The notes: generated by a model from the letters alone, not told the origin. DNA of 39,641 bases from Microthyrium microscopicum (GCA_010405405.1 MU004231.1:3597486-3637126); one strand, 5' to 3'. Shown: positions 1-39,641, numbered from the stretch's first letter. Made by a program: numbers and translations.

Positions 1-510
1 ACTACTAGTTAGTTAAATTAGTAATAAGGTTAGTTTTATTTTTATCTAATATAATACAATCTAATATTAGAACTTATTAGAAGATCTTAGCTAATAGAAT
101 ACTAAGAATAGTTCTTTATTTTAGTAATATATAATATAGAGATTTTAACTTACTCTCTTATAGAGTTTACTATAGAATATTAACTTAACTAAAGTAAGAC
201 TACCTAATAATAACTAGAATAAGTATAAGTAGGTATAAGCTAGTAGATAATTTAATACGTATAATATTAAAGATTCTATTATAATTATTTTATATATAGC
301 TATCTAAGGCTTAGAGTTAGTAAAAAATAATAAAGTAATAAGAAAAATCTTAACTTATAGTTAAAGCATTAGAGCTATTCTTTAATTTATACCTAACTTA
401 TTATTATATTAGAAAAGAATATATTATTAAGCTAGTACTAGATATAGATATATATCTTATAGCTATATATTCTTCCTTAGGTTTTAGTTTTAGGCTTATT
501 TATATAAGCT
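1..510 (+). pseudogene. Possible 3' end of a RIP-degraded ORF, unknown product
   Basis: One plus frame reads as plausible protein when TAA/TAG are read as Q/W (e.g. ...AVKALELFFD...). No family motif recognised. Confidence 0.25.
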
Positions 511-659
511 AAATAAGTTATAAATACTTATATATTACTTAGTCATTATAATATTTAGGTCTACTATACTTCTAGTTTATTAATCTTATCCTAGTAATTA
601 ATTATTATATAATTAGCGTAGCTTATTAAGATAATTAAAACTAATGTTTAATATACTAG

Positions 660-1390
660 CTTTAGTAGTTAAATATTACGTAGCTTATAAAGTTAGTATA
701 CTTAGCTAAGCTAGAAATAGTTTACTCTAAGCCTATTATTCTTACCCTAGTAGTAAAAAGCTACATAGCTAGTAAAGCTACTATAGTTAGGTAGATAGCT
801 AGCATAATAGTAATAGTTTATTCTAAGCCTATTACTCTTACTCTAGTAATTAATTTACTATATTATTAGCGAAGCTATTATAGTTAGCTAGGTAGCTACT
901 ATAATAGCTATAGTTTATTCTAAGCCTATTACTCTTACTCTAGTAGTTAAATATTACGTTGCTAGTAAAGCCTTAATAAATAGCTATTATATTAAAGCAT
1001 TATAGCTATAGTTTATTCTAAGCCTATTACTCTTATTCTAATAGTTAAATATTATATTATTAGTAAAGCCTTAATAAATAACTATTACGTTAAAGCACTA
1101 TAGCTATAGTTATTTTAGGTCTATCTATTAAGGCTTTAATAGTTAAACGTTACGTTACTAGTAAAGCCTTAATAAATAGCTATTGCGTCAAAGCACTATA
1201 GCTATAGTTATTTTAGGTCTATCTATTAAGGCTCTAGTAGTTAAATATTATGTTGCTAGCAAAGCCTTAATAGATAACTATTATATTAAAGTATTATAAC
1301 TATAATTATTTTAGGTCTATTTATTAAGGCTCTAGTAATTAAACGTTACGTTACTAGCAAAGCCTTAATAGATAGTTATTACGTTAAAGC
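660..1390. repeat. Tandem array of ~7 units of 96-98 bp; later units carry an internal inverted repeat
   Basis: aaagccttaata recurs at 967, 1065, 1163, 1261, 1359 (98-bp period). taagcctatt recurs at 728, 824, 921, 1019. Stem ctatctattaaggcttt (1121-1137) pairs with aaagccttaataaatag (1163-1179). Confidence 0.9.
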
Positions 1391-1499
1391 GTATTACAAA
1401 GCTATTAGAAAAAGTAAATATAATAAGTTTATACTAGTTATTAATTAGTAAGAATATATTAACTATTATTATACTATTAGAAATAAAGGCTTAGTATAT

Positions 1500-3000
1500 T
1501 ATTAGTTATAAACTAAGATAGTTAGCTAAGAAGGTACTACTTATATAAAGACTTCTAACTACTTAAAGCCTATAGTTAGATAAATTATAGTAGAGCTAGA
1601 AGTAATATAAAATTAGTATCTTTCTCTTATAGAGAAAGGTTAGAACTTTAATATTAAAAGTAACGTCTAGAGTAGTCTATAAGAGTTATTTTATATAATA
1701 ACCCTTAAGTTTAAAAGTATCCTATTAGTTTATATCTTTAAATATCTTTTAATATCTTATTAGAATATAAAAGATTTATAATTAAATAGTAATAACTTCT
1801 TTAAACTATACTTTTCTAACTTCTTAACGTAAGTTAAATATACTAATCTCTACTACTCTAACTATTAGCGCCTTATCTAAATATAGCATACTATATCTAA
1901 GTAGCTCTAAGTCTCTTATTTAGACCTTAATTATTATAGTAGATTAAGGCATTAAAACTAGAGTCTACTAAATTATATTAAGTAGATATAACTTTAATTA
2001 GTCTATATACTACTATTACTTTTAGTAGAGATATAGCTATATCTAAGTAGAGATTAAGATATTTCTTAATAAAGTAGTAAATAATATATTTAAACTTTTA
2101 AGGTTTAAAAGGCTAAACTATTAGAAGCAATATTAAAGCCTAGCCTAACTCTATATTTAATAGAAAGAAGCTAACAAATTATATATATTTAACTACTTAG
2201 TCTTTTTAATATTTAACTTCTTCTACTTCTTCTTTTTTAATATACGTCTATATAGAATATTAGTAGAAGAGTTAATAAATAACTAATATACTTTACTAAA
2301 TACTTCTATATTACAAAATAAGTTATTTTTATATCTTTTAGCCTTAATATTAAGCTTTATACCCTCTTTAACCTATTATAATAAGTTTAAAAATATACTA
2401 GAGAATAGTATATTAACTTATTATAATAATCTAGTATAGAGTATATATATATACTAAGCAATTTATTTAAGTAGTATTTAGGCTTTAGTACTTCCTTTAA
2501 GTACTATAAGAAACTCCTTAGAACTTAATTATAGTATAGTCCTTCTATAAAAGCTCTTACTAGGTCTTAGAACAAGATCTATTAATAAGCTTAAAAGGTT
2601 ATTAATAAAAGCTATAAGCTTATTAGAAATTTAACTAAGTATTAATATAGCAATTAGATTTAATAAGCTCATAAGAGAATATTAATACAAGCTACCTATT
2701 ATTTTATCTTATAAATACTAAGAGTAGTCTCTATTAATTATATTATTTTAGTATTAGAACTAAGGACTTATAGAATATCCTAAGAATATCTCTATACCTT
2801 AATCTACGTATAGGCACTATAAATAGTATTACGTTCTAGACGTTATAATCTTAAGACTCTATCTATATATAAAGTACTTACTATATTATAATATTATTAG
2901 CTATAGTTTTAAGAATAGCTACGCTAAAAGGGCTAGTGTCTAAAAACTAATTCTATAATAGATTATAGAACTTCTTCCTATAAACTAATAATAATAAATA
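1500..3000 (-). pseudogene. RIP-degraded ORF, ~500 codons, unknown product
   Basis: One minus frame reads continuously when RIP stops are reverted (e.g. ...RVVEISVFNLRQEVGEAWFEEVIAIRL...). No family recognised. Confidence 0.5.
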
Positions 3001-3114
3001 TATCTTTAATTATTATTAGCTAAGTTAAGAGATATACTATAGTATATATATATTGTAAAAAAATTATTATATATTGCAAATTAGACTACGTATTATACTA
3101 GAAAAGTTATATTT

Positions 3115-3506
3115 AACTTATTATAAAGATATTAGATACATATAAGATAACTACGTACTTTATTAGAAATATTTTAAAAGTATTTAAAATATTTTAAACT
3201 TATTAAGTATATTATAGTTATTTTAAACTTATTATAAAAATATTAGATACGTATAAGATAATATATACTTTATTAGAAATATTATAAAACTATTTAAAAT
3301 ATTTTAAACTTATTAGATATATTATAGTTATTTAAAACTTATTATAAGGATATTAGATACGTATAAGATAATATATACTTTATTAGAAATATTATAAAAC
3401 TATTTAAAATATTTTAAACTTATTAAATATATCGTAGTTATTTAAAACTTATTATAAAAACATTAAATATATATAAAATAATATATACTTTATTAGAAAT
3501 ATTATA
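3115..3506. repeat. ~110-bp tandem repeat (at least 3.5 copies, runs into gap)
   Basis: tattagatac at 3130, 3241, 3351 and a degenerate copy at 3461. Confidence 0.9.
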
Positions 3507-4153
3507 NNNNNNNNNNNNNNNNNNNNNNNNNNNNNNNNNNNNNNNNNNNNNNNNNNNNNNNNNNNNNNNNNNNNNNNNNNNNNNNNNNNNNNNNNNNNNN
3601 NNNNNNNNNNNNNNNNNNNNNNNNNNNNNNNNNNNNNNNNNNNNNNNNNNNNNNNNNNNNNNNNNNNNNNNNNNNNNNNNNNNNNNNNNNNNNNNNNNNN
3701 NNNNNNNNNNNNNNNNNNNNNNNNNNNNNNNNNNNNNNNNNNNNNNNNNNNNNNNNNNNNNNNNNNNNNNNNNNNNNNNNNNNNNNNNNNNNNNNNNNNN
3801 NNNNNNNNNNNNNNNNNNNNNNNNNNNNNNNNNNNNNNNNNNNNNNNNNNNNNNNNNNNNNNNNNNNNNNNNNNNNNNNNNNNNNNNNNNNNNNNNNNNN
3901 NNNNNNNNNNNNNNNNNNNNNNNNNNNNNNNNNNNNNNNNNNNNNNNNNNNNNNNNNNNNNNNNNNNNNNNNNNNNNNNNNNNNNNNNNNNNNNNNNNNN
4001 NNNNNNNNNNNNNNNNNNNNNNNNNNNNNNNNNNNNNNNNNNNNNNNNNNNNNNNNNNNNNNNNNNNNNNNNNNNNNNNNNNNNNNNNNNNNNNNNNNNN
4101 NNNNNNNNNNNNNNNNNNNNNNNNNNNNNNNNNNNNNNNNNNNNNNNNNNNNN
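3507..4153. other. Assembly gap (N)
   Basis: Run of N flanked by repeats. Confidence 1.
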
Positions 4154-7100
4154 TAAAAACTACCTTAAGCTTTATTTATAGATAGGTAGATTAAATACTT
4201 AAAATAATAATAGTTATTTAGGGGTTATTACTACATATAGAAATATTACTTACTAGTAACCTTTATTATATCTAAATATATCTAGTACCTAGATAAAGTA
4301 GTAATAATATTAAGAGTAAGTAAGATAAGATAAGATAATAGTATCTTTAATAGTATATTAGTTAACTATAATAATAAAAGTAATAGTAAGTAGTATATAA
4401 ATTAAGCTAAGTCTACGTATAACGCTCCTTATTATCATAAAACACTATTATATTTACTTTTATTCTACTAGTCTCTAGAACATAGATTATAATAGTAACT
4501 ATCGCCTTAGTATTATTATTAATTACAATATTACTAACGTCTATACTTAAAACTTCTATCTCTAATTCTACTCTACGCTTTAAGATACTACTTATTTTAT
4601 ATACTATATAATCCTTTATAATAAGGTCCTACGTATTTACTATGCTAAGAATAAGATATTACTCTTACTAGGCTATAAATAGCCTAGTTATTATTTTAAT
4701 TATATAGTGCTACTTACCCCTTTACATAATTAGTAAAGTTAAAGATTTATCTACTATTCCTAGTTTAATAGAGATTAATATTAAAGACTAGTTATAGTAT
4801 ATTAAAAAAGTCTTTTCTATTCTATACTACTTAAAGAATATTATTAACTTCTTTCTTTCTTAAATTATCTTTCCTATAGGAATAAGAGAGTTTTCTTTAA
4901 AAATTTCTATATCTAGTACTATTATATAACTATTAAATTAAGTAAGGATACTTAAGTAATATAGTAGAGGAAGAACTACCTTAAGCTCTATCTATAAGTA
5001 GATAGATTAAATACTTAGAGTAATAATTAGCACTTATAGTAGTAAATCTATTTAGTATATCTAATTATATTTATAGTATATTCTAAAAATTTTATATAAA
5101 GCCTTATAACCCTTAATACTATATATTATTTAAGGGTTATTACTACGTATAGGAACGTTACTTATTAGTAACCTTTATTATATTTAGATATATTTAGTAC
5201 CTAAATAAAGTAGTAATAATATTAAGAGTAAGTAAGATAATAGTACCTTTAATAATATATTAGTTAATTATAATAATAAGAGTAATAATAAGTAGTATAT
5301 AAATTAAGCTAGAAGTAGCCTAGTTATTATTTTAATTATATAGTACTACTTACCCTTTTACATAACTAGTAGAGTTAAAAATTTATTTACTATTCTTAAT
5401 TTAATAGAGATTAATATTAAAGATTAGTTATAGTATACTAAAAAAGTTTTTTTTGCTCTATACTACTTAAAGAGTACTATTAACTTTTTTTTTTCTTAAA
5501 TTATCTTTCCTATAGAAATAAGAGAGTTTTCTTTAAAAATTTCTATATCTAGTACTATTATATAGTCTATTAAGCTAAACTTAAGAAGCTTCTAGTAGCA
5601 TTTCTAACTCTAGTAGTTTATATATATATTAGATTTAAAGTCTAAAGAATTTACTAAGTAGAATATATTTCTAGTACAATCCTACTTAATAATAAGAAAA
5701 AATATTTAATATACTATAAGCCTTTATAAATGCCTTTAATAAGCTATTAAACTAAGTAAGGATACTTAAGTAATATAGTAAAAAAAAGACTACCTTAAGT
5801 TCTATCTATAAGTAAGTAGATTAAATACTTAGAGTAATAATAGTTATTTAAGAGTTATTACTACGTATAAGAACGTTACTTATTAGTAACCTCTATTATA
5901 TCTAGATATATCTAGTACCTAGATAAAATAGTAATAATATTAAGAGTAGATAAAGTAATAGCACCTTTAGTAGTATATTAATTAACTATAATAATAAGAG
6001 TAATAATAAATAGTATATAAATTAAGCTAAAAGTAGCCTAGTTATTATTTTAATTATATAGTACTACTTACTTCTTTACGTAACTAGTAAAGTTAGAGAT
6101 TTATCTACTATTCTTAGTCTAATAGAGATACTATTATATAGCTATTAAACTAAATAAAAATACTTAAGTAATATAGTAAAAGTATTAAGTAGGTAAATAT
6201 TTCCTTAATTATTTTAGTAGCGTTCTATATAAGCTCTTCTTCTAAGATAATAAAAGAGATTTCCTTATAATAGATATAGTTAAAGAACGTTATACGAAGC
6301 TAGGATTATATTTAAGAACTTAGTAGTTATTAAAATAATTACTAAGGAGTAATAACCTTTCCTTTCTAGTTAAGATAATACTATTCTTATATCTTACGCT
6401 TTATTAAGTAAGTAGTATATTACCTTTATAGTTAAATTAAGTAATTATATTAATAAATATATCTATACTCTTAACTAGTTAAAGAAGTAGCTAAAAACTA
6501 CCTTAAGCTTTATCTATAAGTAAATAGATTAAATACTTAGAGTAATAATAGTTATTTAAGAGTTATTACTATATATAGAAACGTTACTTACTAGTAACTT
6601 TTATTATATCTAGATATATTTAGTACCTAAATAAAGTAGTAACGATATTAAGAATAGGTAAGGTAATAGTATCTTTAGTAGTATATTAGTTAACTATAAT
6701 AATAAGAGTAATAGTAAATAGACTAGATTTTTTTAAATATTTCCTTAGATATTTTAGTAGCATCTTATATAAGCTCTTCCTTTAGGATAAAAAAAAGAGT
6801 TCTCTTATAATAGATATAGTTAAAGAACGCTATATAAAGCTAGGGTTAAAGATTTAGTATCTTTATAATTCTTATATTAGTAAGGACTTAGTAATCTAAT
6901 AAATATTATTAAGAAAAGTAGCTATCCTTAAGTTAATAGAAGTATACTAATTATTAAGGTAGAAAAGCCTATATTATAGTAGTAAGTATTTTCCTAGTCT
7001 AAAGCTAATAAATAAATTAGATAATAGAGAAGCTTCTATAAAGAAGAGTAGAATATCTAATAATATTAGAGTTATTAATTTACTAATATACTAAAAGTAG

Positions 7101-7520
7101 TTTAATTATAATACTATAAAGAATTCTTATAAGCTAAGTACTAGTTTTAGTAATAAAGTAATTAGAGAATTTTAAGACTCTAAAGCATCTATTAGTAAGT
7201 AATGCTTCTAGAATATATATTAGCTAATTATTAATAAATCTTATATATTTATAGGTTATACCTTCTAAGTTAAAAACTATAAAGGTTAGTTTATTAACTA
7301 GAGTAGTTAAAGAGTCTATATATTCTATACTCTTTATTACTAAGTCTATCTTTTATTAACTTTACTTTCCTTTTAAGTATTTAGCGTACGCTTTTATAAA
7401 GTTAAAGTATAAAACTAAGTAATTATATTAATAAATACGTCTATACTCTTAACTTATTAAAGAAGTAGCTAAAAACTACTTTAACTTTATTTATAAGTAG
7501 ATAGATTAGATACTTAGAGT
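4154..7520. repeat. Mosaic array of shuffled 60-280 bp modules
   Basis: Module A (taccttaag...gtatataaattaagct) starts at 4161, 4977, 5791, 6499 and partially at 7477. Module B (agcctagttattattttaattatatag) is at 4681, 5317, 6035. Module C is at ~6195 and ~6734; module D at ~6439 and ~7417. Confidence 0.9.
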
Positions 7521-7900
7521 AGTTATTTATAGTAATAATAATTACGTTTACCTTAACTCTAATATAATTAAGATTATTTAGGTATTAGACTTATTTTTAG
7601 TATTATTACTTAAAGCTTTAATAGTAAGATTATAGCCTTTAAATATTTCTATAGTAAGCATAGTAATTAGTATTTTAGAAGCTTAAGTAAGTAATAGTAA
7701 AGAATAACTTAGTAATTAGATAGTTTCTTAACGTTCTTAGCCTAGCTAGCTTTTATAAGCGTATAAAGAAATTATAGCTATTAAGTATATTCTTAAGAGT
7801 AAAAAAATAGGCTCTTACTAAAATATTTAAGCTCTTATTATAAATATAGTAAAGCTAGAATAGCTAGTTATTAATAAATTACTAAATAAAAATAATAATC

Positions 7901-8625
7901 TATAGATAATAGATAGTTATAGCTTATACTAAATATAGAAACTTTATATTAGTTCTTTAAGTATAAGATTAAAATAAAGTAGTAACTTCTTATTAAAGGA
8001 GTAGCTATTATTAATATTAGCTAAGCTATATATACTCTTTACTTATATAACTACCTAGCTAGCTTTATTCTTTTACTCTTTTAGATAAATTAGTTTTATA
8101 TAAATATAAAATAAGAACTAAGCTAATTTATATATATTAGTAGTACTATAATTACCTTAATAGAATATTATAAGCTTAGGTAATAGCCTACTAAGATAGA
8201 AAGCTACCTTACTAATATTAATATTAACTAATATATAGGAAGTTATAAGTTAAGTACTAGTATAGATAGTAAATAGTTATAGCTTATACTAAATATAGAA
8301 ACTTTATATTAGTTCCTTAAGTATAAAATTAAGGTTAGGTAGTAACTTCTTATTAAAGAAATAGCTATTATTAATATTAGCTAAGCTATATATACTCTTT
8401 ACTTATATAACTACTTAGCTAGCTTTATTCTTTTACTTTTTTAGATAGGTTAATTTTACATAAATATAAAATAAGAACTAAGCTAATCTATATATATTAG
8501 TAATACTATAATTACCCTAATAGGATATTATAAGCTTAGGTAGTAGTCTATTAAAGTAGAAAGCTATCTTACTAATATTAATATTAATTAATATATAGGA
8601 AGTTATAAGTTAAGTATTAGTATAG
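7901..8625. repeat. Two tandem copies of a 360-bp (120-codon) unit
   Basis: 7901-8260 aligns with 8261-8620 at exactly 360-bp offset; differences are mostly transitions. Confidence 0.92.
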
Positions 8626-8806
8626 TATCCTTAGAGAGCTAATAAGCTACTATTAAGATAAAGCTATTATAGATTAGCTCTAATAAATAGAAAGACTTTT
8701 TATAGTCTAATTATAGCTATGTTTACGTTAGATTAGTAAAAATAGTTAAAAAATATATTAAGAGGTTAAAAAAGAGTTAGCTAATTATTATAGCTAGTAT
8801 TAGATA

Positions 8807-9277
8807 NNNNNNNNNNNNNNNNNNNNNNNNNNNNNNNNNNNNNNNNNNNNNNNNNNNNNNNNNNNNNNNNNNNNNNNNNNNNNNNNNNNNNNNNNNNNNN
8901 NNNNNNNNNNNNNNNNNNNNNNNNNNNNNNNNNNNNNNNNNNNNNNNNNNNNNNNNNNNNNNNNNNNNNNNNNNNNNNNNNNNNNNNNNNNNNNNNNNNN
9001 NNNNNNNNNNNNNNNNNNNNNNNNNNNNNNNNNNNNNNNNNNNNNNNNNNNNNNNNNNNNNNNNNNNNNNNNNNNNNNNNNNNNNNNNNNNNNNNNNNNN
9101 NNNNNNNNNNNNNNNNNNNNNNNNNNNNNNNNNNNNNNNNNNNNNNNNNNNNNNNNNNNNNNNNNNNNNNNNNNNNNNNNNNNNNNNNNNNNNNNNNNNN
9201 NNNNNNNNNNNNNNNNNNNNNNNNNNNNNNNNNNNNNNNNNNNNNNNNNNNNNNNNNNNNNNNNNNNNNNNNNNNNA
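8807..9277. other. Assembly gap (N)
   Basis: Run of N. Confidence 1.
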
Positions 9278-9909
9278 AATATATATAGTCTATTATTAAT
9301 TTAAGAAAGTAAGAGTTACCTAGAATCTTATCTATTATATTTATTATAAAGAAAGAAATTATAAAGTAGATATATATTTTACGTAATTAATTTAAAAGAA
9401 CTAAGTAAGTATAGAAAGTAGAATAAAGAAAGAAAATAAGCTATTTATACTTAGCTATTAATCTTTCTTATTTTCTATATAAAGAGTATCTATAATATAA
9501 AAAAATAAAGTTTCTTTTACTTTATATATAAGGTTTAAAGTCTTAAGTAGTTATAAAGAAATATACTTTTTTAAGTATAGTAGTACTTTAGTATTATACT
9601 ATATAAAAGTTATTAAAATAACTTTAATAAGCGCTTTCTTTATATTTAAGCTAAGTAAAAAGTAAAATAAAAAAAAAGAGAGAAGGTTAAATTAAGTTAA
9701 AGCTAAAGGAAAGATTTAGAAAGAGTACTATTTTAACTAAGAAGAAAAGGTTATTATATCTTAGTAACTACTTTAATAATTACTAAATCTTTAAATACTT
9801 ACTATTCTAATATAGTTAAAAATAATCTTTACTTAGAGTTTATCTCCTTACTATTTTAACTTTTATATTCTCTAACTTAATAAGCCCTTTATATTTTACT
9901 ATAATAATT

Positions 9910-10170
9910 ATAGTAGCTATAGAGGTAAATTTTATAATAGTTAAAGTAGAGGTAGGTTTAATAAAAAAGGAAGTAGTAATTATAAAGGTAAATTTTATAG
10001 TAATTAAAGTAAAGGTAAGTTTAATAAAGAAGGAGATAATAGTTATAAAGGTAAATTTTATAGTAATTAAAGTAAAGATAAGTTTAATAAAGAAGGAAGT
10101 AGTAGCTATAAAGGTAAATTTTATAGTAGTTAATATAAAAGTAAGTTTAATAAAGAAGGAGGTAATAATT
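9910..10170 (-). repeat. 63-bp (21-codon) tandem repeat x4, Ser/Thr-rich on minus strand
   Basis: ggtaaatttta at 9924, 9987, 10050, 10113. De-RIP reading ~TTSSSVEPTSTSTTAESTSAA. Related degenerate copies at ~10350-10500. Confidence 0.85.
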
Positions 10171-11218
10171 ATTATTATTATTAATTATACTTCTTCTAGT
10201 ATTTACTTAGTAGTTCTAATAATAGCCTAGCTATATCTTTTATCTTTATCTTCTTCCTTTTTATTACTTTTAAACTTTAATATAATCCTACTACTTTATT
10301 TATAAAGCTAACTAAAATATTAGAAGCCTTAAGATATATAGAATATATAGTAAAAATAAATTCTATAGTAGTTAAGGTAATAATAGAGAAGAAGGTAGTA
10401 GTAGTAAAGATAAGTTTTATAGTAGTTAAGGTAAAGATATAAAAAAGCTAAGGTAGTAGCTATAGAGATAACTTTTATAGTAATAAAGATAAAGTAGTAT
10501 ATTAAGTATTACTATAATATCTTTAACTTTTCTTTATATAAAGTAGACCTTATAGAGAATAAAGGGTACTAAGTAGTAAATACTTAAAATACTTTTTTAG
10601 ACGTTCCTAGATTTTTAAGGTACTTTAGAAGTATAAGTAAGAAAAGGTAATATAGCTATATATAGTAGTAATAGCCTTTAGATATAGTATTCTTTAAGAA
10701 AGCTAGGTAGTAATAGCTTTCTTTTATAGTAATATATATTAAGTTAAAAGTATTACTTTTATACTAGATATAGCTCTTATACTAATAAAGAAGTTTAATA
10801 ATTTAATATTACTATAATTATTATTTTAAATAGATTAGTTAGAATATAGGTAGTAAAGCTAATTAAAGCTAGTTATAAAGCCTTACTTAAGTATCTTAAA
10901 GAGTAATAGTATTACTATTAACTTTATAAACTCTAACTTTATATTTTAGTAATATAGATCTATTATAGAATAATATAAGCTAAATAAATAGAGTAAGCGC
11001 GTAATTATTTTAGTTAAGGATACTCTTTAGTAATATATTAATTATTTATAATAATAAGAGTAATAGTAAGGAACTAGTTTTTAAGCAATAGGTTTAAGAT
11101 AAAGGTAATTTATTTAGAAATAACTAAGACTAATAAGTACGTAAGTAATAGTATAAGTAATAATAAATATTAAGGTAGAGTATAATAGGCGTTAAGTTAA
11201 TCTTTATTACTATTAAGA

Positions 11219-11920: not shown

Positions 11921-11998
11921 NTATATAAATTACTATTATTATTAATAAGTCTTTTACTTCTTATTTAATATGCTGTTTCTCTTTTATAAGATCTTATT

Positions 11999-12406
11999 AA
12001 GGAAAATATTACGTTAATACTATTTTATTATTAATATAATACTACCTTAAGTATTATAAGTTATTACTTAAACTTATTTATAGAGAAGAAGGAATCTATA
12101 CCCTAGTAGTATACTGCTATACATTATTATTATTATTATTATATAATTAGTATATACTTATAGTATAATATTTATAAGAATACTATTAAGATAATATAGT
12201 AATATTTATCTTAGTACTAACGTTATAATTACTTTTCTATAATACTACTCTAAGGCTATTCTACCTTTATAGTAGCTATATATTAACTCTTTAAGAAATA
12301 ATATTACGTTAATACTATTTTATTATTAATATAATACTACCTTAAGTTCTATAAGTTATTACTTAAACTTATTTAAAGATAAAGAGAAGCCTATATCCTA
12401 GTAGTA
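11999..12406. repeat. ~110-bp direct repeat, two copies 295 bp apart
   Basis: atattacgttaatactattttattattaatataatactaccttaag at 12006 and 12301. Confidence 0.85.
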
Positions 12407-22095: not shown

Positions 22096-22109
22096 CGTCG
22101 TTAGCTATA

Positions 22110-27550: not shown

Positions 27551-28699
27551 ATATATATAATTAAAAAAGAAAAAGCCTATTTTAAAAAAATACTATAAAA
27601 CCTAATAGTTCTTATTTACTTTTTAAGAAACTAACGCTTAGAATAGTAAAGACCTTAATATAATTATATTAGTATTTACTAAGGACTCCTTATAAAAATA
27701 GGTTATACTAGACCTAAAAGATATATATAAATTAAGCCTCTTTAACTTATTTAAGATAAATATAAATATTTATAAATATATAGTTAAGATTAGTATAGAG
27801 TACTTTAAAAATATAATAAGCTTAAAGTTAGACCTATTTAAAAGTCTAAATATAATTTATAGTATAAGTTAAGTATAAGATAATTAAACTATTTTAATAA
27901 GTTTAAATATATACAATTTTGTTAAAGTTACTTATAATAATCTCTATAAGCTAAGAAAGATTACTTTTAAAGTTACTTAGGTTAAATCTCTTTTAAAGAA
28001 AACTTATACTAGTAAATAAAAATATAAGGCCTTAGTTACTTTTACTCTAAGCTCTTCTCTTTTACTTTAAAATAAATATAATAAGAAATCTTATACTTAA
28101 CCTTATATAAATCCCTAGCTAACTACTTAACCTATCTCTACTACTAAATTATTAATGTATAAACGTAATATATATAAAGATCTTATTTTTAATTAATTTA
28201 ATAAAGATAGTAAGGTTACTAAAGATAATAAAGATAGTAAGGTTACTAAAGATAATAAAGATAGCTTAGATAAGAATTTTAAAAATAGCTTAGTTAAGAA
28301 TTCTAAAATAGAGTTAAATAGTAATCTAAATAATTCTAAAGAGAAAGACTTAGAATTTCTACTAGTATCGCCTAGTAGAATAAAGTAAAAGTATAATAAT
28401 AATAAAAATAATATAAAAGGAGTTAGTAGTAGCTATAATCTTTTAGTATTTATAAATAAAAAGAAATTTAAGAATAAATCTAGTTCTTATAATTATAAAA
28501 AATAATAGACTTTAGTATAAATAAGCCTATTTAGTAAGAAAAATAAAAGTAAATCTAAATATAAAGAGGTAAAGGTAAAATTAACTTTAATCTTAGAAGT
28601 AATTAATAAGAATAGTAGCTAAGAATATTATACTTCTCTAAGCTTACTAGTCTAAATATTATAGCCTTAGAATGTTATTACTAATATAGAGATAAGGAA

Positions 28700-29290
28700 C
28701 GTATAATAAGATTAAGTATTACTTCTAAATAGCGTTAAACTTATAAATACTATTATTATATCTTCTTAAGGACTTAAAGAGCGTATTATTAAGTTAGAAA
28801 TAGAGAGTATATAATAAAATTAAGCACTACTTCTAGATAGCATTAGATTTATAGATACTACTACTATATCTTCTTAAGGACTTAAAAAGCTTATTATTAA
28901 GCTAAAGATAAAGAGCGTATAATAAGATTAAGTACTACTTTTAGATAGTACTAGACCTATAGATACTACTATTATATCTTCTTAAAAACTTAAAGAGCGC
29001 GTTATTAAGCTAGAGATAGAAAGCATATAATAAGATTAAGTACTACTTTTAGATAGTACTAGACCTATAAATACTATTACTATATTTTCTTAAGAACTTA
29101 AAGAGTATATTATTAAGCTAGAGATAAGAAGTATATAATAAGATTAAGTACTACTTCTAGATAGTACTAGATCTATAGATACTACTACTATATTTTCTTA
29201 AGAACTTAAAGAGCGTATTATTAAGCTAGAGATAGAGAATATATAATAAGATTAAGTATTGCCTCTAAATAGTAATAGACTTATATAGTC
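28700..29290 (+). repeat. 108-bp (36-codon) tandem repeat, ~5.5 copies, in frame within the SNF2 ORF
   Basis: taagattaag-like motif at 28707, 28815, 28923, 29031, 29139, 29247. De-RIP reading ~QQDQAPLPDSTGPADTTTASSQGPEERVVEPETESV. Confidence 0.92.
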
Positions 29291-32200
29291 TTAAAGCCTT
29301 AAGCCTTTTACTAATAATATATAGATAGGAGATAGTAAAGTATAAGCGCTAATTTCTATAAATATTAATTATCTATTTAAAATATATTATTTATAGAGAC
29401 CTAATTCTACTACTCTAGATTATATTATATTACTCTTTACCTTATAAAAATTAAGTTATCTAATAATAGCTAAATTTCCTTTTAATTACTTAAGAAAATA
29501 CTATAGCTTTCTAAGTATACTAGCTTCTTTAACTATATTATTTTCTTAAAATAAGCTATTTTCTTTTAGCTATACTAAACCTTTAAGTTTCTCTAAGTAC
29601 GTTATTAATTTTATTAACGTTATAGATATTATTAATCTTACTATTAATAACTTAGAATTATTACTATTTATAGTAAATATTTTTATAAATATTAAAAACT
29701 TAACTAAGGAAGATATTACTATACTAGATAACTCTATAGCTATTAAAGTAATTAATTTAACTATAGAAAAGATTACTACGCTATCTAAACTTTAATTACT
29801 AGACTTACTATTTTTTTTATAGAATAAAGTAAATATATTATATAGTATAGAAGTAAAATACTTTTAAGAGTTATAACCTTATAAAAATAAGTAATAATAT
29901 AACTATAATAATAAGGATAGTAATATAAGAATTAATATATAGTAAGCTTATAAGAAATAGATTAAACTTTATTTATCTAATATATATAAACTAATACTTA
30001 ATATTATTAGCTTTTATATATTAAAGACTTTTAAAAATAAATATATCTAAGAATAAACTAGTTTCTTTATTAACTACTTTAACTATACTAAATATAGATC
30101 TATTATACTTAAGTCTTTTATAATAAGTAAAGCTTTATATACTAAAACTTTATAAGCTAAACTATTTTATAATATATATATAGAATATAGAGAGTCTAAA
30201 ATAGTTAAAGATAAGGATTTAAAAGCTTTCTTTATTATAAGCTTCTATATAGAACTATTATAGAGTAAAACTTATAAGTACTTAATACTTAAAGACTAGA
30301 GAGAGATATATATATTCTTTAACTATAAAGATAAGAATAATATATTAGATTTTATTATTTCTAGATTTAAAGTTAATATTTAAATTTATTAAGCTATTAG
30401 AGTAATAATTATATATAAGTATATTATCTTTATATAAAGCCTCTATATTATAAACGTTCTAAGCTTAGAGAAGACTATTTAGATATTAATTACTATTTAA
30501 ATAAATAGTTAATAGACTAAAAGTATAGTAATATATATAAAAAAGTAACACCTTATAGAAGAAAAGAAACCTAAGCTTTTTAAGAAATATTTATTAAACG
30601 TTTAGGTCCTTAGTTATTAAGGCCCTAAGAATAAAAAAAAAGGTCCTTATACGTAGTTAAGAAGTCTTAACTAATCTATAATATACTATTACTCTAAGAA
30701 ATTATTAGCATAGTTAAAATCTACTATAACTTATATTAACTCTAAAAACTATTAGTATAATACTCTTACTATTAGTATAAACTATATATAAATAATTATA
30801 TCTATAATCTTAGTTTAATTAGATAAATAGAAAAAGGTAATTAATACCTTAAAATATAAAAGTAAGCCTAACTAGGTATTTATCCTCTATGTTAACTATT
30901 TAAGTATAAAACCTAAATTTATATTCCTAAATAAAGTTTTCTATATACGTAGACTTTTTATTAATTTTAAAACTAATTTTAGAATACTTAAGTAGACTAG
31001 TATTATTATATTAATAATATTAGGTTTATATATATTCTAAGTCTTATAACTAATTATAAAACTCTTATGAGCATAGTTAAAAGAATAGAAAACTAGATAT
31101 TATAAAACTCTAGAATTTAAGAACTATTTTTATATTAATATAGAATTAGTAGTAAATAGAGGTAAATACTTACGTAATTAAAAATACTTTATAATTAGAG
31201 TCTTAGTCTTAGATAAGTTTTATAAATATTAAATATTAAATAACTTAACTTATTCTAATATTAATAAAGAAACCTATATACCTAGTTATATACTATTAGA
31301 GTACTATTATAGTATATAGTCTAGAGCTACTATATTAAGTTAATCTAGGATATATTATAATACTATAGTAAGCTAACTAAACCTAATTACTTACTTAGTA
31401 AATATATAATATATTTACTTCTCTAATACTAATAAAAACATTAGAGAGTTTCTTAAATAGGAATTAAAAAAAGATTAGGTAATCTTTACTAATAATTATA
31501 TATTATTTACTCCTCTATTACTTAATACTATTTCTAGTTAAATTACTATACTTATTATGAAAGATATAAGATTACATAAGTATTCTAATAAAAGAAAAGA
31601 GAAATAGCTTATAAGAGAATAAGCCTAAGTAAGCACTATTTTAGCTAGTATATATATCTTATTTAAACTCTACTATATAATAAATATAGAGCTTTTTAGT
31701 TAAAAGTATATTATACTACCTTTAAATAAAATAAGGCTTATTATTATTAATATAATAAACCTAGAAGTAATATAGCTTATAGATAAGCTTAATAAATATA
31801 TAGTAGCGTAAATAAATAAACTAAGAATAACTACTATTAATAACTTTAGTACTTAGTGTAAAAGTAAACTATATTAAGCTAAATAGATATAAGCTAGGCT
31901 AGCTAACTATATAGTTTACTAAACCTCTATTAAGATTATATATTATAGATTTATTATTAAGGTGCCCTATCTATTAATATTAAAATAGGTAAAGAAAATT
32001 AAAGAATAGGCTAAAGATAATCTCTATTATATATTAGTAGGAATTAATAGTAGCCTATTTCTAAAGCCTAACTCTAAGAAACTAGCTAAGCCTAAGAATA
32101 ATCTCTTTATTAAAGAAGCTTCTTAGTTTTTAAAGATAAGTGCTTAAATATAATACGTAGTAGAGGTTATTAAAAAGATCTATATTAATCTAGAAACGTA

Positions 32201-34208
32201 CTTTTTTAATAGAGAATAAAAAGAATAAGGCTTATAATAAGGTAAAGTCTTAATTATTATAAAGTATTTTACTTCTACTAGTATAATTATAGTAGCGTTT
32301 TAATATATAATTAAGAAATTTAATCTCTAAGTACTTTATTTTACTAAAACTAGTATATTAAGTAAAAAGTTATTTTTAATTAAAGTAGGCTATTTAAGAA
32401 CTAGCTCGTCCTTATGTAATAAAGCTAATATTTATTACTTCTTTTAAAATATTCTAAAGTCTATTATAAGTAGTTAAACGCTATTAAGAGTAGGTAAATA
32501 CTTCTTTAATAAGAATATCTAGGTTCTAGTTAGAACGTATAGTAGCTATAGTATTAGAAGTAATTAGTAGTAAGTAAAGTATCTAATTATAATATCTATT
32601 CTAATATTACTAAGCAATTAGACTTAGAGTATTAGAAAAGTTCTTTAAGTAAGTAATATAGTAAAGTATATCTTAATTAACGTATTATACTTAGATAATA
32701 ATTTAATTAATATACTATTATAGAATATTAATAAGCTTTAGTTAAATACTATAGATTTTATAAAGGCTTATTTTAAAGGTTAAGTAGTATAACTAATAAG
32801 ACTTAAAGATTTATAAATATATCTTAAATTAGGACTAACCTAGCCTAAGTTAACTAAACTAGTATCTTAATCTAAGGAAGCCTTAGCTTCTCTATTTATA
32901 AAAGAGATATAGAAATACTTAAAGAATATTAAAAATAATATATACTAGAATATTAAAGAGAGTTTAGTTACGATTAAGACGAAGCTTAGAAATAATAAAT
33001 TTAATAAATAACTTTATATATAATTAGTTTAGTTTATAGTAAGGGTTAAAGTACTACTATTAAATTATTAATAATATAGGATATTAGAAAATATACTTAA
33101 AGTTAATATTATTATTATTAATATACAAAATATATCTTTATAATAAATCTAAATATCTTAACTAGACTAATAGATATATCTAGTAGCTAAAAGAATCTAG
33201 AGAGAGATAGAAGAATAATAAAGATAAATAATAATGCTTTATAGTCTATAGAGTATTTATTTAACTAAATATCTTTTAGCGTATATTTATAAAATATAAC
33301 TTAGCTATATCTATTTATAAACGCTATTCTATTTATATCTCTTTTCTTTAGTAATATTAACTTATAAAGTAAATAATGTAGTACTATTAGTTTTTATAGC
33401 TCCTACTAGGATTTTAGGTAAAGAGCTTAGAAAGAATTATAGAGCTATATTATTTATATTATTAAGTAATTAATAATCTAAGCTAACATTCTAATAGGGT
33501 ATTCTATTAATCTTCCTTTTATTTATTTATAATATTAGAACTCTTTTAAAAATAAAAATTAGTAGTTTAATTCTTTAACTTTAGCTTTTCTATAAGTAAA
33601 TCTATTATTTTTACTAATAAAAGGTTAGTAAATTATACTATATTATAATATTAGCGTTATTAATATACTTAGATAAATTAAAGAAGATTTAGCTATATAA
33701 TTACCCTCTTTGCTAGGATTAATTCTATTATCTACTTTATTTATATTTAAAGGCTAAGAAAAAGGTAATAAAGAGGAGAGAGATAGAAAAAGATAGGGAT
33801 AAGGAACTAAAAGTTAAGAAGGCTTAAACTTAAGGTATTAAGTTCTATTTAATTAGATAGGAAAGGCTGTATCCTTTTGTAACTTTAATAATAAACTACT
33901 AGTCTAAGTAACTTTACTATCTAAATCTAGGACTTACTTATAATAACTATTACTAGTTTTAATTCTTAGCTTACTTATTTAACTCTATTTTTATGCTTAA
34001 TATCTTTATCTATCTTAGTATTACGTCTATTACTAATAATTATAAATATTATATTATTTCTTATATTAAGATAATTTATAAACTTAGTTAAGCTTTTATA
34101 AACCTAATAGGCTTATATAAATATATAAACCTTAAGAAACCTAATATAATATCTAGATTTAAATAGCGTTTAATTTTAATATATTAACTATAATTATACT
34201 TCTTTATA

Positions 34209-34720
34209 ATAGGCTTTATTTAGATATATACTTTAATATATATCTATTCTAGTTATAGTAACCTATTTCTTTTATATCTCTTATTAAGATTTACTTAGGT
34301 AAGTACTACTATGCTTTAATTAGACCTACTTAGAGTACTCTAGGCTAATTTTTAAGGAGTCTAAGAAAAAATAAAGTAATACTTAAGATATAAATAAAAT
34401 TAAGAGTAAGAACTATAATTCTTTAGAATAATTAAGTATAGACTAATTATTCTATAAATATAGAGTTATAGCTACGTAATTATCTACTTTATTAAAAGTA
34501 GATTTATTATATTTTATATCTTTACTTAAAGACTAAGAATGTAAAGAAATTAGAGAACGTAAAGAAGGTAAAGAAGTACGTAAAGAAGGCTATAAAGAAG
34601 GCTATAAAGAAGGCTTAGTTAAAGGAGAAGGCTAAGGTAGAAAAAGTTACTAACTTATTAGAGAAGACTATACTTAAAAATAAGGTTAAGGTAATAGCTA
34701 AAGAGGCTAAGAAGGCCTAA
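34209..34720 (+). pseudogene. Small 3-exon gene (~130 aa): putative CxxC..CxxC knuckle plus Lys/Ala-rich basic tail
   Basis: Introns 34299-34356 (gtaagt..gctaat..aag) and 34406-34463 (gtaaga..actaat..tag) splice in frame to ...KNVKKSENVKKVEKYAKKAAKKAAKKA... The Cys residues are inferred from tat<tgt. Confidence 0.6.
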
Positions 34721-35339
34721 AGTTTAAGATATAAAATACTCTTTATTAAGTAGAAACTAAAAGTTATTATATAGAACCTATAGTTACTATATTAAAGTTA
34801 ATTAATAATATTAGCTCTAAAAGCTTAAATAATTTTCTTTATCTATACTTTCTTACTTTAAAGGTTCTAGTCTCTATATTAGGGAGCTCTTTAATATAAT
34901 TTTAGACGTTCTAAATATACTTATTTATAAAAGATATATAGTAAATAATAGGATAAGTTATAAAAGAGATAGTAATTAGAAGTAGTAATTAAGAAAAATA
35001 AAATCTTAAGCTATAAGTATATTTAATAAGAGAGATTACTCTACTACTCTTAAAATCTAAAAATCTAATTAATTATTAAAAAAGTTACGTAAAGTTTTAG
35101 ACTTAAAATTACTATTAAGCTTTAAGGCTTTTTATCCTTTTTTTTGCTACTTATTTTTTCTTATTTATAATAACTATACCTTTATATTAAACGTATATTA
35201 GTTAGTATAAAGATTAAGATATTATCCTTAAGGAGAAAAGAGTAGAGTCTATTAAAATAAGATAAGTCTTAACTATAAAACTATTTACTATATTAAGATT
35301 ATTATTACTACTTTCTTTATTTATACCTTAGAGTAGTAA

Positions 35340-35470
35340 ATAAGAAGAAAGAGAAAAAAGAAAAGATTATAAGTAAAAAGAATAAAGAATAAAAAGAGAA
35401 GAGAGAAGAGAAAAAAAAATAAGTAGAATAGAAAGTAAAAGAAAAAGAGATATAGTAAATAGATATAAAA
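35340..35470. repeat. Purine-rich (A/G) low-complexity tract
   Basis: aagaagaaagagaaaaaagaaaag... over ~130 bp. Confidence 0.7.
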
Positions 35471-35579
35471 GATAACTAGACTATTATAATTAGCTATAAA
35501 ACTAAGCTAATATAATAATTTAGGGGTAATAAAAGTCTAAATTATTACTATTAATTATATTTAGGCTAGAAATTAAAAT

Positions 35580-36800
35580 AGAAAAGGTTAGTACTTTAAG
35601 TAGAAAACTAAATAGTAATTATTACTATTTAGTTCTATTAGTATACTTTATAAATTAATTAGCGTAACTTAGTCTACGTTATAAAATATTATTATTTATT
35701 AAAAATAGAAGAGCTTTTAATTCCTACTAAGGAGATATAATATTAACTAGAGTTATTAAATCTAAAATATTTAAGTATATTATATTTTCTCTTTATATTA
35801 TTCCTATTTATCTCTAGGTAAGTATACCTCTTATTTACCTTAGTAGAAATAACTTAAAAAATATTAAAGATTATATATACTTAGGTACTTATCTTTAGTA
35901 TTTTATAAATAAAGTACTTAATAGAATTATATTTATAGGAGGCTATAGGGTTTATAATAGATTATATAATATAGGATTTAGAACGTAATGTAGCGTCTTA
36001 GGTAATATATTAAGGCTTTTAACTATTATAGTAGAGAAAAGACATAATCTTATTATAAGTCTACTTTATATAAAATAGTTATTAGACTTCTATTTTATTT
36101 ATACTACCTCTTATTATTTAATTAATACTAATTATAGATAAACTAGCTATATTAAAGCCTATAATAATACTTATTTAAGATAAACTTATTATATAGTAGT
36201 AACTATATATAAATAGCTATAGATAGTTTTTAAGCTTTATAGCGTACTCTTAATTTACTTACCTTGCTTTTAAATAAGAATAAAATAATAATAATAATTA
36301 CTAACTCCTTTATTAATTCGTTAGAGTTACTAAACCTAAAGCTATTATTATAAATTTACTCTTAGAAGTAGAAGATTATAACTAGAGGCTTTATTACTAT
36401 AATATATCTTTTAGTATTAATATTCCTTAACTTAATAAAGATAAGGATAATAATTCTATAAGTAAAATTATATAGCTATTAACTATTTTAAATATAGAGA
36501 GCTAATAATAAATAAGCTAGAACGTCTAAACTACTACCTATATAACTCTCTTTATCTTAGTAAGTATAGTCTATTCTATAAATATATAATTCCTTAAATT
36601 ATAAAACTAGTAAGTAAGTTATTATTAGAAACCTTATATTAATAATAAAAACTTATAAAATATTAATATATAGGAGGCTAGTTACTAGAAAAGGTTAGGA
36701 ATAATCTGCTATTTAGACTTTTATTATAATAGGGTATAGAATACCTTAACTATATCTAAAATAAATATTACTCCTTAAAATTTATATACTAGACTTAGTT
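35580..36800 (-). pseudogene. ORF (~400 codons) with S/Q-rich N-terminus and tentative BAH-like C-terminal domain
   Basis: Continuous minus frame. De-RIP: ...PFVHGCYYAMS...SVISIDRMMRGGTNEMEVRQLFHTEWT...DATLRSESHIVQSVVDPAASC... Confidence 0.5.
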
Positions 36801-37039
36801 ACTATCTAAGTATAGTAAATATACTAAATAATAAGTTATAAAGTAAAATTATAATAACATAAAGGTTATAACTTTATAATATTAGAATAATTATAACTAT
36901 TAGCTAACTTATTATACTAAAGAACAAAATCTATAGTACTATATATTATAATATAAAAAATATAAAGATAATAATTTTAAGCTATAAATATATTTATAAA
37001 GTAACTTTTTTTAAAAGTATATAAGTCTTAAATAATAGT

Positions 37040-37095
37040 ATATCTAGAAAAGTCTAAAAAGTCTAGATAAGTCTAGAAATTTTTAGAAATATTTT
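37040..37095. promoter_or_regulatory. Cluster of TCTAGA-like motifs between two divergent ORFs
   Basis: tatctagaaaagtctaaaaagtctagataagtctagaaatttttagaaat: five copies at ~10-bp spacing. Confidence 0.4.
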
Positions 37096-37185
37096 ATATA
37101 ACTTTAAAGAATATTTACTTTATTATACTATTAATATTAAATATTACTACTTACTTTATATTTTATATATAAATATAACCTAACT

Positions 37186-38300
37186 ATAGCTACTAATCTA
37201 AATATAAGTCTATAAGTCTTCTTTTAGTAATATAAAGATATCTATAGGCTTAATATATAGGTTCTTAGAACTAATAAATTTAGTTATAAATAGTACGTAG
37301 TCCTAAGTAATAATATGTTTCTAACTATTTAAGTACTACTATAGTATATTTTCCTTATATTCTCTTTTCTACGTTATAATAAATTTATAACTTCTAATTC
37401 TTATAATATACTTATTATTAATCTTTAGTATATTCTTTCTATTCTAACTTTAATCTTATACTATCCTCCTTACCTAATAACTTCTCTATATTATAGTTAG
37501 ACTTTTAGAAGATAATATAGCTAAATAGTAAGATAGCTTAAAAAAGTATCTAAATATAACTAAGAAGGAGCTAATATAATAACTTAATATAAACTTAAAT
37601 AAATATACTTAATTAGCTATAGCTATAAAGAAGCGATTTTAAGACTTATATTATAGTCTTAATAACTATAATACGTATAAGAAAAAGTAAGAGATAATTA
37701 CTAATATTATATAATATCTAAGTATATAACTATTAGCTAAATAAGGCTATCTATATATTAGAAAATTACATTAGCTAAGTATAAAGTATAATAAAGCTAT
37801 ATATAAGGATAAATAATAAAAATTACTTTTTATATTAGTTTATTATTACTAACAAAATATACGTTAATAAAAATAAACGAAAGCCTAAACTTAGAATATA
37901 TATAAGTAAACTTCTATTCTAACTTTAACTATCTATTAATAATAGATAGGGTCTATTACTAATAAAACTTCATTAGTATCTTCTTAGAGCTTAAGACTAA
38001 GAGAATTAAAATAATTCTAGAATTATAATAATACGTAACCTAAGGTATAGCTATATATACTTCTAGACTTTAACTCCTTCTTAGTAGTTATAAATATATA
38101 AATATATATTTATAAAATAGTAAGTAACTATATTTATACTTTAAACTATAAAAAGTTTATAAATAGTAGCTATAATAGTTTTAAGAAAAATACTAATACT
38201 TTAAATTATAATATTATAATTAAGTTCCTTAAAGAGTTCTTTAAGTATAAGTAATATAAAGAGCTCTTACTTTTTTATAAATTTAATTAAATAAAGAGAA
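37186..38300 (+). pseudogene. RIP-degraded ORF, unknown product, possibly one intron near 37810-37860
   Basis: De-RIP MATDPNASPQVFFQQYEDIYGLDVQVLGTDEFGYEQYAVP... continues in frame for ~200 codons; ctaac branch-like site at ~37849. Confidence 0.5.
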
Positions 38301-38436
38301 CTTCTATTAATAATAAGGTCTTATTTTATAGAGCAATTAATAGTACTATATTAATTAAGTAATAGACTATTAAATTTAAAGTAATAAAATAAATTAAGAG
38401 ATAAAATACGATCTATTACTATATAATTCTTAGACT

Positions 38437-39641
38437 ATTATAGGTTCCCCTTCCTTTTTTAACTTAGGAAATATACTAATAATTAGAACGAAGCATAATA
38501 TTAATTATTATAAGTAAGATACTAAGGTATACTAAAATGCCTAATTTCTAGGTTAAAACCTAGCTTTATAACCTTATAGTTAACAAAGTAAACGTTCTTT
38601 AAGTAAAATAAATTAGTATTAAATCTTAATAGTTTAGTAGAATAAGTTAGCCTTAGATATTAAATCCTTATATATATTAGTCTAAACCTTAGCTTTAGTT
38701 TAAGTACTTTTTTATCTTTTAAAGTATATTACTTATCTTACTACTCTTATATAGTAAACTAGTTACTTTCTTAATACGTCTATATATATTTATTAAGTTA
38801 ATAATATTTAGAGTCTATTAGCTACTTAGTATAGATAATAAATAGTACTATAGATTAATTAGGTATAAGTTTATTAAATACTTAAGAGTTAAGCTATATT
38901 TTAGTTCCTAATATAGTAGTATCTATTCTAGCTTTAAAAAATACCTTAAGCTTAGTATTAAAAAGTAGCTCTATATTAGGCTTAATAAGAGCTTTTAGTA
39001 AAATTTAAGAGCTAGCCTCTATCTTAAGTTAAAGAAACAATTATAACTTAGTTTTAATAAAATGCTCTAGAGCTTATTTAATAAGGTTCTTAAGCTTTAT
39101 AATAGAAGTAGCCTATAACTCTAGGCCTAAAGCTTATTTAATAAGAGCCTTAAGCTTTATAATAAAAGAAGCCTATAACTCTAAGTCTAGAGCTTATTTA
39201 ATAAGAATCTTAAGCTTTATAAGGAAAGAAGCCTATAACTCTAGGTCTAGAGCTTATTTAATAAGGGCCTTAAGCTTTATAATAGATAAAGCTTATAACT
39301 CTAGTTCTAGAGGTTATTTAATAGAGGTTATAAAATAAGGTATTTACTATAACTCTTAGTTTAGTAATTATTTAATAGAAGCCTTAAGCTTTATAATAGA
39401 AGGAGCTTATAACTCTAACTCTAAAGTAGTATTTAGTAAGTTAGAGTTAATAACTATTAGTAATTCTAATACTAAGAAAGTATCTTAATTAGACTTTTAG
39501 TATATATTAGCTAGGTCTAGTAGTCCTATTTAATAAAACTAGAAAGTATTACCTATTCTTTATATACTAGTAGGATTTAACTAAAAAATAGTATTTTATA
39601 GTACTATAAATATTAGGTTCTATTTAATAGTACTAATTAGC
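38437..39641 (-). pseudogene. 3' part of a RIP-degraded ORF with Pro/Glu-rich repeats and an unrecognised globular C-terminus
   Basis: Continuous minus frame ending ...DLFYLENVYFVDYEVMKLGFDPEIRHFGVP...RKRKGNPQ*; 5' end outside window. Confidence 0.55.
39060..39430 (-). repeat. 60-bp (20-codon) tandem repeat, ~5-6 copies
   Basis: agcttatttaataag repeats every 60 bp (39070-39330). De-RIP reading ~EPQASLPTEPEAPVEQAPDP. Confidence 0.9.

Follow-up and report, generated by a model that had tools for sequence, protein, structure and literature searches.

A RIP-saturated Plavaka transposase fossil and two neighbouring reading-frame fossils in Microthyrium microscopicum

Plavaka transposons are EnSpm/CACTA-like members of the 'CMCT' clade and move by a cut-and-paste route that depends on a DDE transposase. 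The subject of this report is a 39,641-nt stretch of the genome of the fungus Microthyrium microscopicum (the window, by which we mean the whole stretch analysed, with positions counted from its first letter). In it we find the fossil of a Plavaka transposase next to two large reading-frame fossils, all of them saturated by repeat-induced point mutation (RIP). A first-pass annotation, made from the sequence of the window alone, had taken the entire stretch for the remains of one giant, cargo-carrying transposon built around this transposase.

According to the available part of PMC12730594, Plavaka elements are EnSpm-like, have target-site duplications (TSDs) of 2-3 bp and, in fungi, may carry TET/JBP; PlavakaA is given there with a 2-bp TSD and termini TGT..ACA, PlavakaB with a 2-3-bp TSD and termini CATCA..TGATG, and the consensus of Plavaka-11_AB, which includes TET/JBP, measures 9895 nt. 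Giant Plavaka elements of red algae (Bostrychia, Chondrus) are presented in the accessible text of bioRxiv 10.1101/2025.02.11.637652 as spanning 17.4-19.1 kb and carrying the accessory genes PAG1-3, with inverted-repeat arrays beside one accessory gene. In that account, PAG2 combines an N6-adenine methylase with SET, and PAG3 a ParB-like part with a 2OG oxygenase. Starships, as outlined in the available part of PMC9156397, are giant elements of Pezizomycotina that carry cargo and have a tyrosine recombinase of the DUF3435 type. As far as these partial sources go, a Plavaka of 17.4-19.1 kb with accessory genes (10.1101/2025.02.11.637652) and TET-carrying fungal Plavaka (PMC12730594) are already in print, so that the novelty of the locus is lower than had been claimed; among the Plavaka papers listed, none appears, by title or abstract, to report an element of this type from an ascomycete with active RIP.

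The transposase fossil and the RIP state of the window

On sequence homology, the presence of one Plavaka (PF18759) DDE transposase fossil, running on the minus strand from ~19.0 to ~15.1 kb, is confirmed, and this central identification of the first-pass annotation stands. It was hardly visible in raw searches. Six-frame Pfam scans of the raw translations, with stops read as X, covered 1-11218 and 12001-39641 (11922-12000 lying outside), and in the scan of 12001-26997 the PF18759 match was weak (E = 0.0032, 17.2 bits, under the curated cut-off of 26.3 bits). It was the sole Pfam family found, apart from an ArgoL1 match in 1-11218 (E = 0.043, 13.9 bits, also under its cut-off), which we take as chance. 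A phmmer search with a 1200-amino-acid read-through translation of 19999->16400 against 1.84 billion representative proteins gave 18 matches at E <= 1e-3 (best 3.5e-10, 55 bits), all aligned to 18448->17750, and all 18 are themselves PF18759 proteins (E = 1e-24 to 1e-47). These matches end near Plavaka profile position ~193-195, where the frame of the window changes.

Stronger signals were obtained with RIP-aware profiles, in which each frame was represented by a three-row alignment (the observed sequence, every TpA turned into CpA, and every TpA turned into TpG) and reversed proteins served as control. The targets were 43 full-length Plavaka relatives (740-1402 amino acids) and a set of metagenome loci encoding Plavaka relatives: 570 of 599 matched stretches were confirmed, and the best 80 were kept (840 kb, with 5190 open reading frames (ORFs) of at least 60 amino acids plus their reversed copies). 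The N-terminal half of the DDE domain scored up to 69 bits against the 43 relatives and 70.8 bits to locus L007. The C-terminal half was found in the other frame, where 17079->16585 matched residues 537-703 of P0025 (49.9 bits, E = 2.4e-16), 17679->17254 matched residues 385-517 of the same protein at 6 bits with the RIP-aware profile, and the C-terminal block reached 57.6 bits with such a profile to the ORF L005:1697-3682. Reversed controls stayed at or below 1.2 bits for the 43 relatives and 7.9 bits for the locus ORFs. The two parts are as follows.

15133..17751, minus strand: C-terminal part of the transposase (first codon base at positions divisible by 3; RIP-compatible ADY, CPxC, PKxH, ExLH and DxLH)
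17747..18436, minus strand: N-terminal half of the DDE domain (first codon base at positions leaving a remainder of 1 on division by 3; SDKT at 17974)

The series of Plavaka motifs that had been read in this gene holds only in part. None of them is literally present, and the full CPxCxVP was not found even in RIP-reverted readings. After reversion of TpA to CpA or TpG, the remaining motifs do appear in order, namely SDKT at 17974, ADY at 17628, CPxC at 17058, PKxH at 16749, ExLH at 16668 and DxLH at 16422, the observed residues being mutated (LDKT for SDKT, YPIY for CPxC). Patterns of the HxxxH type were too frequent in the reverted sets to be placed. Comparison with relatives would put the start of the protein near 18.9-19.0 kb.

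The frame switch in the window lies at ~17.75 kb, where the five closest loci (L001, L003, L005, L007 and L010) also split into two ORFs. On this account, the frame change is probably a conserved short intron of this Plavaka lineage rather than a frameshift caused by decay. With RIP-aware profiles of all 18 frame-chunks, no second Plavaka copy was seen in the window. Two candidates were set aside: an apparent Plavaka match at 11577-11152 crosses a run of N and is an artefact, and an alignment of 14636->14499 with several Plavaka proteins of Lactarius, at their extreme C-termini, is doubtful, being consistent in placement, not significant (E = 2-17) and 1.3 kb too far out.

CpA-type RIP is saturated from end to end of the window. 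The G+C fraction is ~0.20 overall (0.12-0.22 per 2-kb window), the dinucleotide counts are 8640 for TpA, 89 for CpA and 77 for TpG, TpA/ApT is 1.65 and (CpA+TpG)/(ApC+GpT) is 0.054 for the whole window, and the RIP substrate index lies between 0.01 and 0.13 in 20 of 20 two-kb windows. The claim of RIP-type saturation is therefore borne out over the full length. The step taken from it, that an equal RIP load points to joint mobility, is not supported by this reasoning, because all repeated DNA in such an AT-rich island becomes saturated and equal saturation is uninformative on linkage. Throughout the window there is no ORF of at least 150 amino acids in any frame (standard code), and the 'ORFs' are therefore fossils read through stops; the window also contains no tRNA and no Rfam family. 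Three N runs (3507-4153, 8807-9276 and 11219-11921), two of which adjoin tandem arrays, add up to 1820 nt, and our statements on homology and frames apply to the DNA outside them.

Frame-bearing blocks and their copies

Stop-codon counts alone discriminated poorly between frames. A codon model trained only on 17701-24301 (minus strand) and applied to the rest of the window, together with codon-phase composition, picked out 15.3-17.5 kb on the minus strand and, out of sample, 26.1-32.4 kb on the plus strand. With borders set by a seven-state segmentation, three frame-bearing blocks emerge, 16.3 kb in total: 15133-17751 (minus), 17752-24687 (minus) and 26296-33006 (plus). In a model-free chi-square of base by codon phase, with tandem repeats masked, the p values of these blocks were 1e-8, 1e-23 and 1e-15, respectively. 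The six other segments (1-3506, 4154-8806, 9277-11218, 11922-15132, 24688-26295 and 33007-39641), which make up 21.7 kb, show no codon periodicity in this test (p = 0.11-0.95), and their stop density is flat at ~12% in all frames. The block at 17752-24687 holds the N-terminal half of the transposase and an upstream ORF fossil in one frame, with a low codon signal at ~18.9-19.8 kb, between the transposase and the fossil that we call A0. The phase of the blocks is preserved over as much as 7 kb, as would be expected if they decayed by transitions and seldom by indels. The picture of about ten unrelated, tightly packed ORFs in an element of more than 39 kb is not upheld by these results, since there are only three such blocks and frame-bearing DNA extends only over 15.1-33.0 kb. 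Besides the transposase, the window divides as follows.

19800..24687, minus strand: block A0, a frame-coherent ORF fossil (one or several ORFs in a single frame), lying upstream of the transposase and sharing its strand and frame
26296..33006, plus strand: block B, an ORF fossil with a coherent frame, directed away from the transposase
24688..26295, no strand: spacer between the divergent blocks, no frame signal (phase chi-square p = 0.54)
25185-25263 and 25352-25419 (direct copies) facing 25760-25860, no strand: inverted repeat of the spacer (87.7 bits in RIP-collapsed self-BLAST)
1..15132, no strand: left flank, no frame signal (p = 0.20-0.95 in four segments), RIP-saturated, with the three N runs
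33007..39641, no strand: right flank, no frame signal (p = 0.11), RIP-saturated, no Pfam family in six frames (25501-39641)

The copy state was assessed on 13000-32999 with contigs from four runs, all of a single sample and study from which the assembly was probably made, placed at 80% likeness or more. The runs contributed 3320 (run X1), 3562, 3546 and 463 contigs. In X1, all 30 depth bins were covered, and 748 contigs were at least 99% alike, 923 fell at 95-99%, 1178 at 90-95% and 471 under 90%. Their differences are A>G at 839 places, T>C at 901, C>T at 727 and G>A at 697, with each transversion class at 8 places or fewer. At the sites listed, between 13.7 and 32.4 kb, the alternative letter is carried by 2-13 distinct contigs, and the numbers of variant contigs are alike across the blocks (9-10 in the transposase at 18.1 kb, 3-9 in A0, 4-13 in B). 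The stretch of 13-33 kb is thus multicopy, and its copies diverge almost solely by RIP-type transitions; we estimate the repeat family of the core at roughly ten copies that RIP has driven apart. Diverged contigs span 24225-25404, across the border of A0 and the spacer, and 25810-26832, across that of the spacer and B, and because they cross both borders the duplicated unit is larger than a single ORF. The suggestion of a multicopy unit therefore survives for 13-33 kb and across two block borders, and no observation links the transposase with 1-15 kb or 33-39.6 kb. Two kinds of contig feature were left unused: joints (such as 31757->13739 with TT between, and 13156->30146), whose sides are ~20-22 nt at 80% in AT-rich DNA, and loose ends at 13501 and 13554 leading into GC-normal sequence, which look like a chance 50-nt match.

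Neither A0 nor B could be assigned to a family. Pfam returned none for either block, with whole frames or with all 18 pieces of 400 amino acids (nine each), at E <= 5, and phmmer against PDB gave no match at E <= 10 for either. A word-indexed protein search gave none for B at E <= 0.01 among 7994 candidates of 1155-3675 amino acids, and none for the N-terminal 717 amino acids of A0 among 8000 candidates of 394-1255 amino acids. Both blocks contain in-frame tandem arrays, at 21896-22565 in A0 (periods of 6/9/15, 33 and 96 nt) and at 28702-29285 in B (period of 108 nt, or 36 codons). Their products would have been repeated peptide modules and a low-complexity tract rich in Asn and Asp.

An SNF2 ORF, which had also been proposed for the window, receives no support from motif scan, locus profiles, Pfam or PDB phmmer. 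In a RIP-aware scan the ordered SNF2 motifs I, II, III and VI are absent from the frame-bearing blocks, which have no DExH and no QxxxRxxRxGQ; LGKT at 22861 and TGTP at 23416 stand in the wrong order. RIP-aware profiles of the window frames bear no likeness to the SNF2-like ORFs of loci L076 or L018. When all window frames were compared, with filters off, to the SNF2-like, reverse transcriptase (RT) and integrase (IN) ORFs of the loci, only Plavaka rose above the reversed control, whose top score of 13.5 bits was due to a tandem repeat. No RT, integrase or second transposase was seen in the raw scans, and RIP-aware profiles against the five RT/IN ORFs (18 frame-chunks) were null. The absence of matches for A0, B and SNF2 is weak evidence, because single-sequence searches have limited sensitivity on such badly damaged DNA.

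The SNF2-like ORFs just mentioned come from a Pfam survey of the 58 longest non-matching ORFs of the loci, which in L076 and L018 found SNF2-related ORFs that lie upstream of Plavaka and read divergently from it, and in five loci RT/integrase ORFs. L076:2864-13599 and L018:2678-13788 are members of a multicopy Plavaka family that align colinearly for ~10.7 kb (80-90% identity), with a 619-amino-acid SNF2-like ORF (GLGKT, DESH, QRQAFAR..LGQ) lying divergently ~3 kb upstream of the L076-type transposase. The region of this ORF is covered by 10 of the 79 other loci, and SNF2-carrying Plavaka elements therefore exist in other fungi. A search for terminal inverted repeats of the L076 family brought up no clear candidates.

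The flanks differ from the blocks in character. The left flank has tandem or dispersed repeats at 717-1440, 3115-3506, 4154-7540, 7901-8625 and 9911-10494, and it looks satellite-like rather than genic. One dispersed repeat of ~50-260 nt occurs there in at least five direct copies (4154-7540 and 11024-11082), pairs of which are up to 96% alike after RIP collapse. The strongest inverted repeat of the window also lies there (6308-6395 / 9711-9798; 88 nt, 96.6% alike RIP-collapsed, 151 bits); it encloses 3.3 kb with a 360-nt tandem duplication and an N run, and its two arms may mark the termini of a distinct non-autonomous element. In the right flank, tandem arrays occupy 35339-35472 and 39066-39423.

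One element or several

The reading that we favour, at about even odds, is that the core at ~15.1-33.0 kb is one RIP-killed, ~18-kb multicopy Plavaka element with two large orphan accessory genes. What supports this reading is the transposase homology, the multicopy state, the similar counts of variant contigs, the contigs that cross borders, the precedents (the red-algal giants, TET-carrying Plavaka and the ~10.7-kb family of L076 and L018) and a shared codon usage, as block B stands out under the model trained on minus-strand DNA. Such an element would have encoded the transposase (minus strand, ~19.0->15.1 kb) and a ~4.9-kb frame upstream of it on the same strand, and also a ~6.7-kb frame in the opposite direction, across a 1.6-kb spacer with inverted repeats. 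It would have multiplied to about ten copies, and each sexual cycle would then have exposed these copies to RIP, with CpA changing to TpA on both strands until no frame was open; decay by point mutation with few indels would have left the frames in phase over 7 kb. The three blocks would travel together as a ~18-kb unit, and the surrounding 21.7 kb would be further repeat DNA of this AT-rich island, likewise saturated by RIP and non-coding-like in character.

Several points weigh against a single ~18-kb element. Its ends were not found: in a self-BLAST in a RIP-collapsed alphabet, no inverted pair flanking 15-33 kb exceeded the shuffled-control maximum of 65.9 bits, and no terminal inverted repeats or TSDs were found. 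A pyrimidine-rich tract at 15.30-15.47 kb and a purine-rich one at 35.34-35.47 kb, tried as inverted subterminal repeats, reached only 56 bits. Short Plavaka termini would be unrecognisable in DNA of 80% A+T, since TGT..ACA would now read TAT..ATA. The relatives with recognisable inverted subterminal arrays (L004, L008 and L010) are only ~6.9-7.5 kb long. Among the 5190 ORFs in the +-10 kb flanks of the 80 Plavaka loci, RIP-aware profiles found no relative of A0 or B (best scores, filters off, 4.4/3.5 bits forward and 4.3/2.7 bits reversed), and the proposed synteny of Plavaka, SNF2 and neighbouring ORFs, looked for in these 80 loci, thus yielded no relative of A0 or B beside Plavaka. The borders of the tested segments stem from the self-trained codon model, the four runs are non-independent, being of one sample, and contig counts or depth are not copy numbers. 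Lastly, among the placed contigs none bridges the interval from the transposase to A0 or the whole spacer.

As to the arrays of the relatives themselves, they lie at L010:3855-3947 / 11176-11341, L004:6076-6143 / 12892-12978 and L008:1731-1798 / 8617-8693, and those of L010 begin with TGT, as do PlavakaA termini in the available part of PMC12730594.

The alternative that survives best is a mosaic, in which a small Plavaka of ~4-7 kb (~15.1-19.8 kb) lies beside unrelated, separately amplified repeat families A0 and B, all RIPed alike; we hold it to be possible, though clearly short of an even chance. On one hand, the 6.9-7.5 kb length of the closest relatives with recognisable ends and the lack of an A0 or B homologue near the 80 loci speak for it, as does the low codon signal at ~18.9-19.8 kb; two element ends that adjoin each other could account for the inverted repeat at 25.2-25.9 kb, and equal RIP saturation is silent on linkage. 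On the other hand, numbers of variant contigs are alike over the three blocks, diverged contigs cross both borders of the spacer with A0 and B, and codon usage is common to the blocks. No RT, integrase or second transposase was met, raw or RIP-aware (five RT/IN ORFs), and there are no long direct repeats resembling long terminal repeats (LTRs) above control: at distances of more than 1.5 kb, the window has none beyond the short repeats of 4.1-7.5 kb and 11.0 kb.

It is unlikely that the locus is cargo of, or a hitch-hiker in, a Starship decayed by RIP, with a DUF3435 captain that is either located beyond the window or too damaged to be recognised. Transposons riding on Starships have been reported, going by the available part of bioRxiv 10.1101/2025.06.18.660325, and a degraded captain could be missed, because the real Plavaka domain itself scored only 17 bits in the raw searches. 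Against this, no PF11917-like (DUF3435) or other recombinase match appeared in the six-frame raw translations of 1-11218 and 12001-39641, which agrees with what the first-pass annotation had noted and is weak evidence given such searches. Moreover, an ordinary high-copy transposon would explain about ten diverged copies better than a Starship would. The high copy number is unlike typical Starships.

Very improbable, finally, is the version in which the window of at least 39.6 kb is one Plavaka-driven giant cargo transposon with about ten genes: the RIP load is uniform over the window, 13-33 kb is multicopy and no captain gene is seen, but 21.7 kb have no codon periodicity, even stop densities and no Pfam family, only three blocks bear frames, the flanks are made of tandem and dispersed short repeats, and the evidence on copy state covers 13-33 kb only.

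Meaning of the locus and comparison with known systems

The '39-kb giant element' reduces mostly to a confirmed Plavaka fossil, two neighbouring fossils without an assigned family and ordinary RIPed repeats. If the three blocks are one unit, large accessory-gene DDE transposons would not be confined to red algae and basidiomycetes, and such elements would also have invaded RIP-active fungi, to be wiped out there by RIP. If this is true, RIPed fossils of this kind may form much of AT-rich isochores. Known transposon accessory proteins tend to act on chromatin or DNA modification. A0 and B could be new transposon accessory proteins, readable only after a deRIP consensus from other copies.

Tentatively, and with a likelihood that we put a little under even, the core can be described as a fungal giant Plavaka of ~18-20 kb in about ten copies, with two family-less accessory genes (~1,600 and ~2,200 codons) arranged divergently around an inverted-repeat spacer. 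It would be the fungal counterpart of the red-algal giants and would represent a non-Starship, DDE-based route to large size.

With Starships, as far as the available part of PMC9156397 describes them, the locus has in common that it is large, lies in a filamentous fungus and includes extra genes; it differs in having a DDE transposase in the window and no detected tyrosine recombinase. The Plavaka family of L076 and L018 likewise has a large gene divergently upstream of the transposase and is multicopy, whereas no window frame resembles its SNF2-like ORF, and the L076-type transposase has 26-28% identity to the query set. Compared with fungal Plavaka in the accessible part of PMC12730594, the candidate unit is about twice as long and has no TET/JBP match; the transposase family, the fungal host, the presence of extra genes and a RIP-compatible C(2)C-type motif after the second D are in common.

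A parallel also exists with the red-algal giants, in so far as the available text of bioRxiv 10.1101/2025.02.11.637652 allows the comparison. Unlike theirs, the host here is a RIP-active fungus, decay has proceeded by RIP and the ends were not found. The PAG cassette is not matched either, as the raw translations of the window, in all frames and at low sensitivity, contain no PAG2- or PAG3-type Pfam domain (N6-methylase, SET, ParB or 2OG oxygenase). What the two have in common is a DDE transposase, the size class (the core measures 17.9 kb here), several very long extra frames, tandem and inverted arrays near an accessory gene, and a high copy number with mostly degenerate copies.

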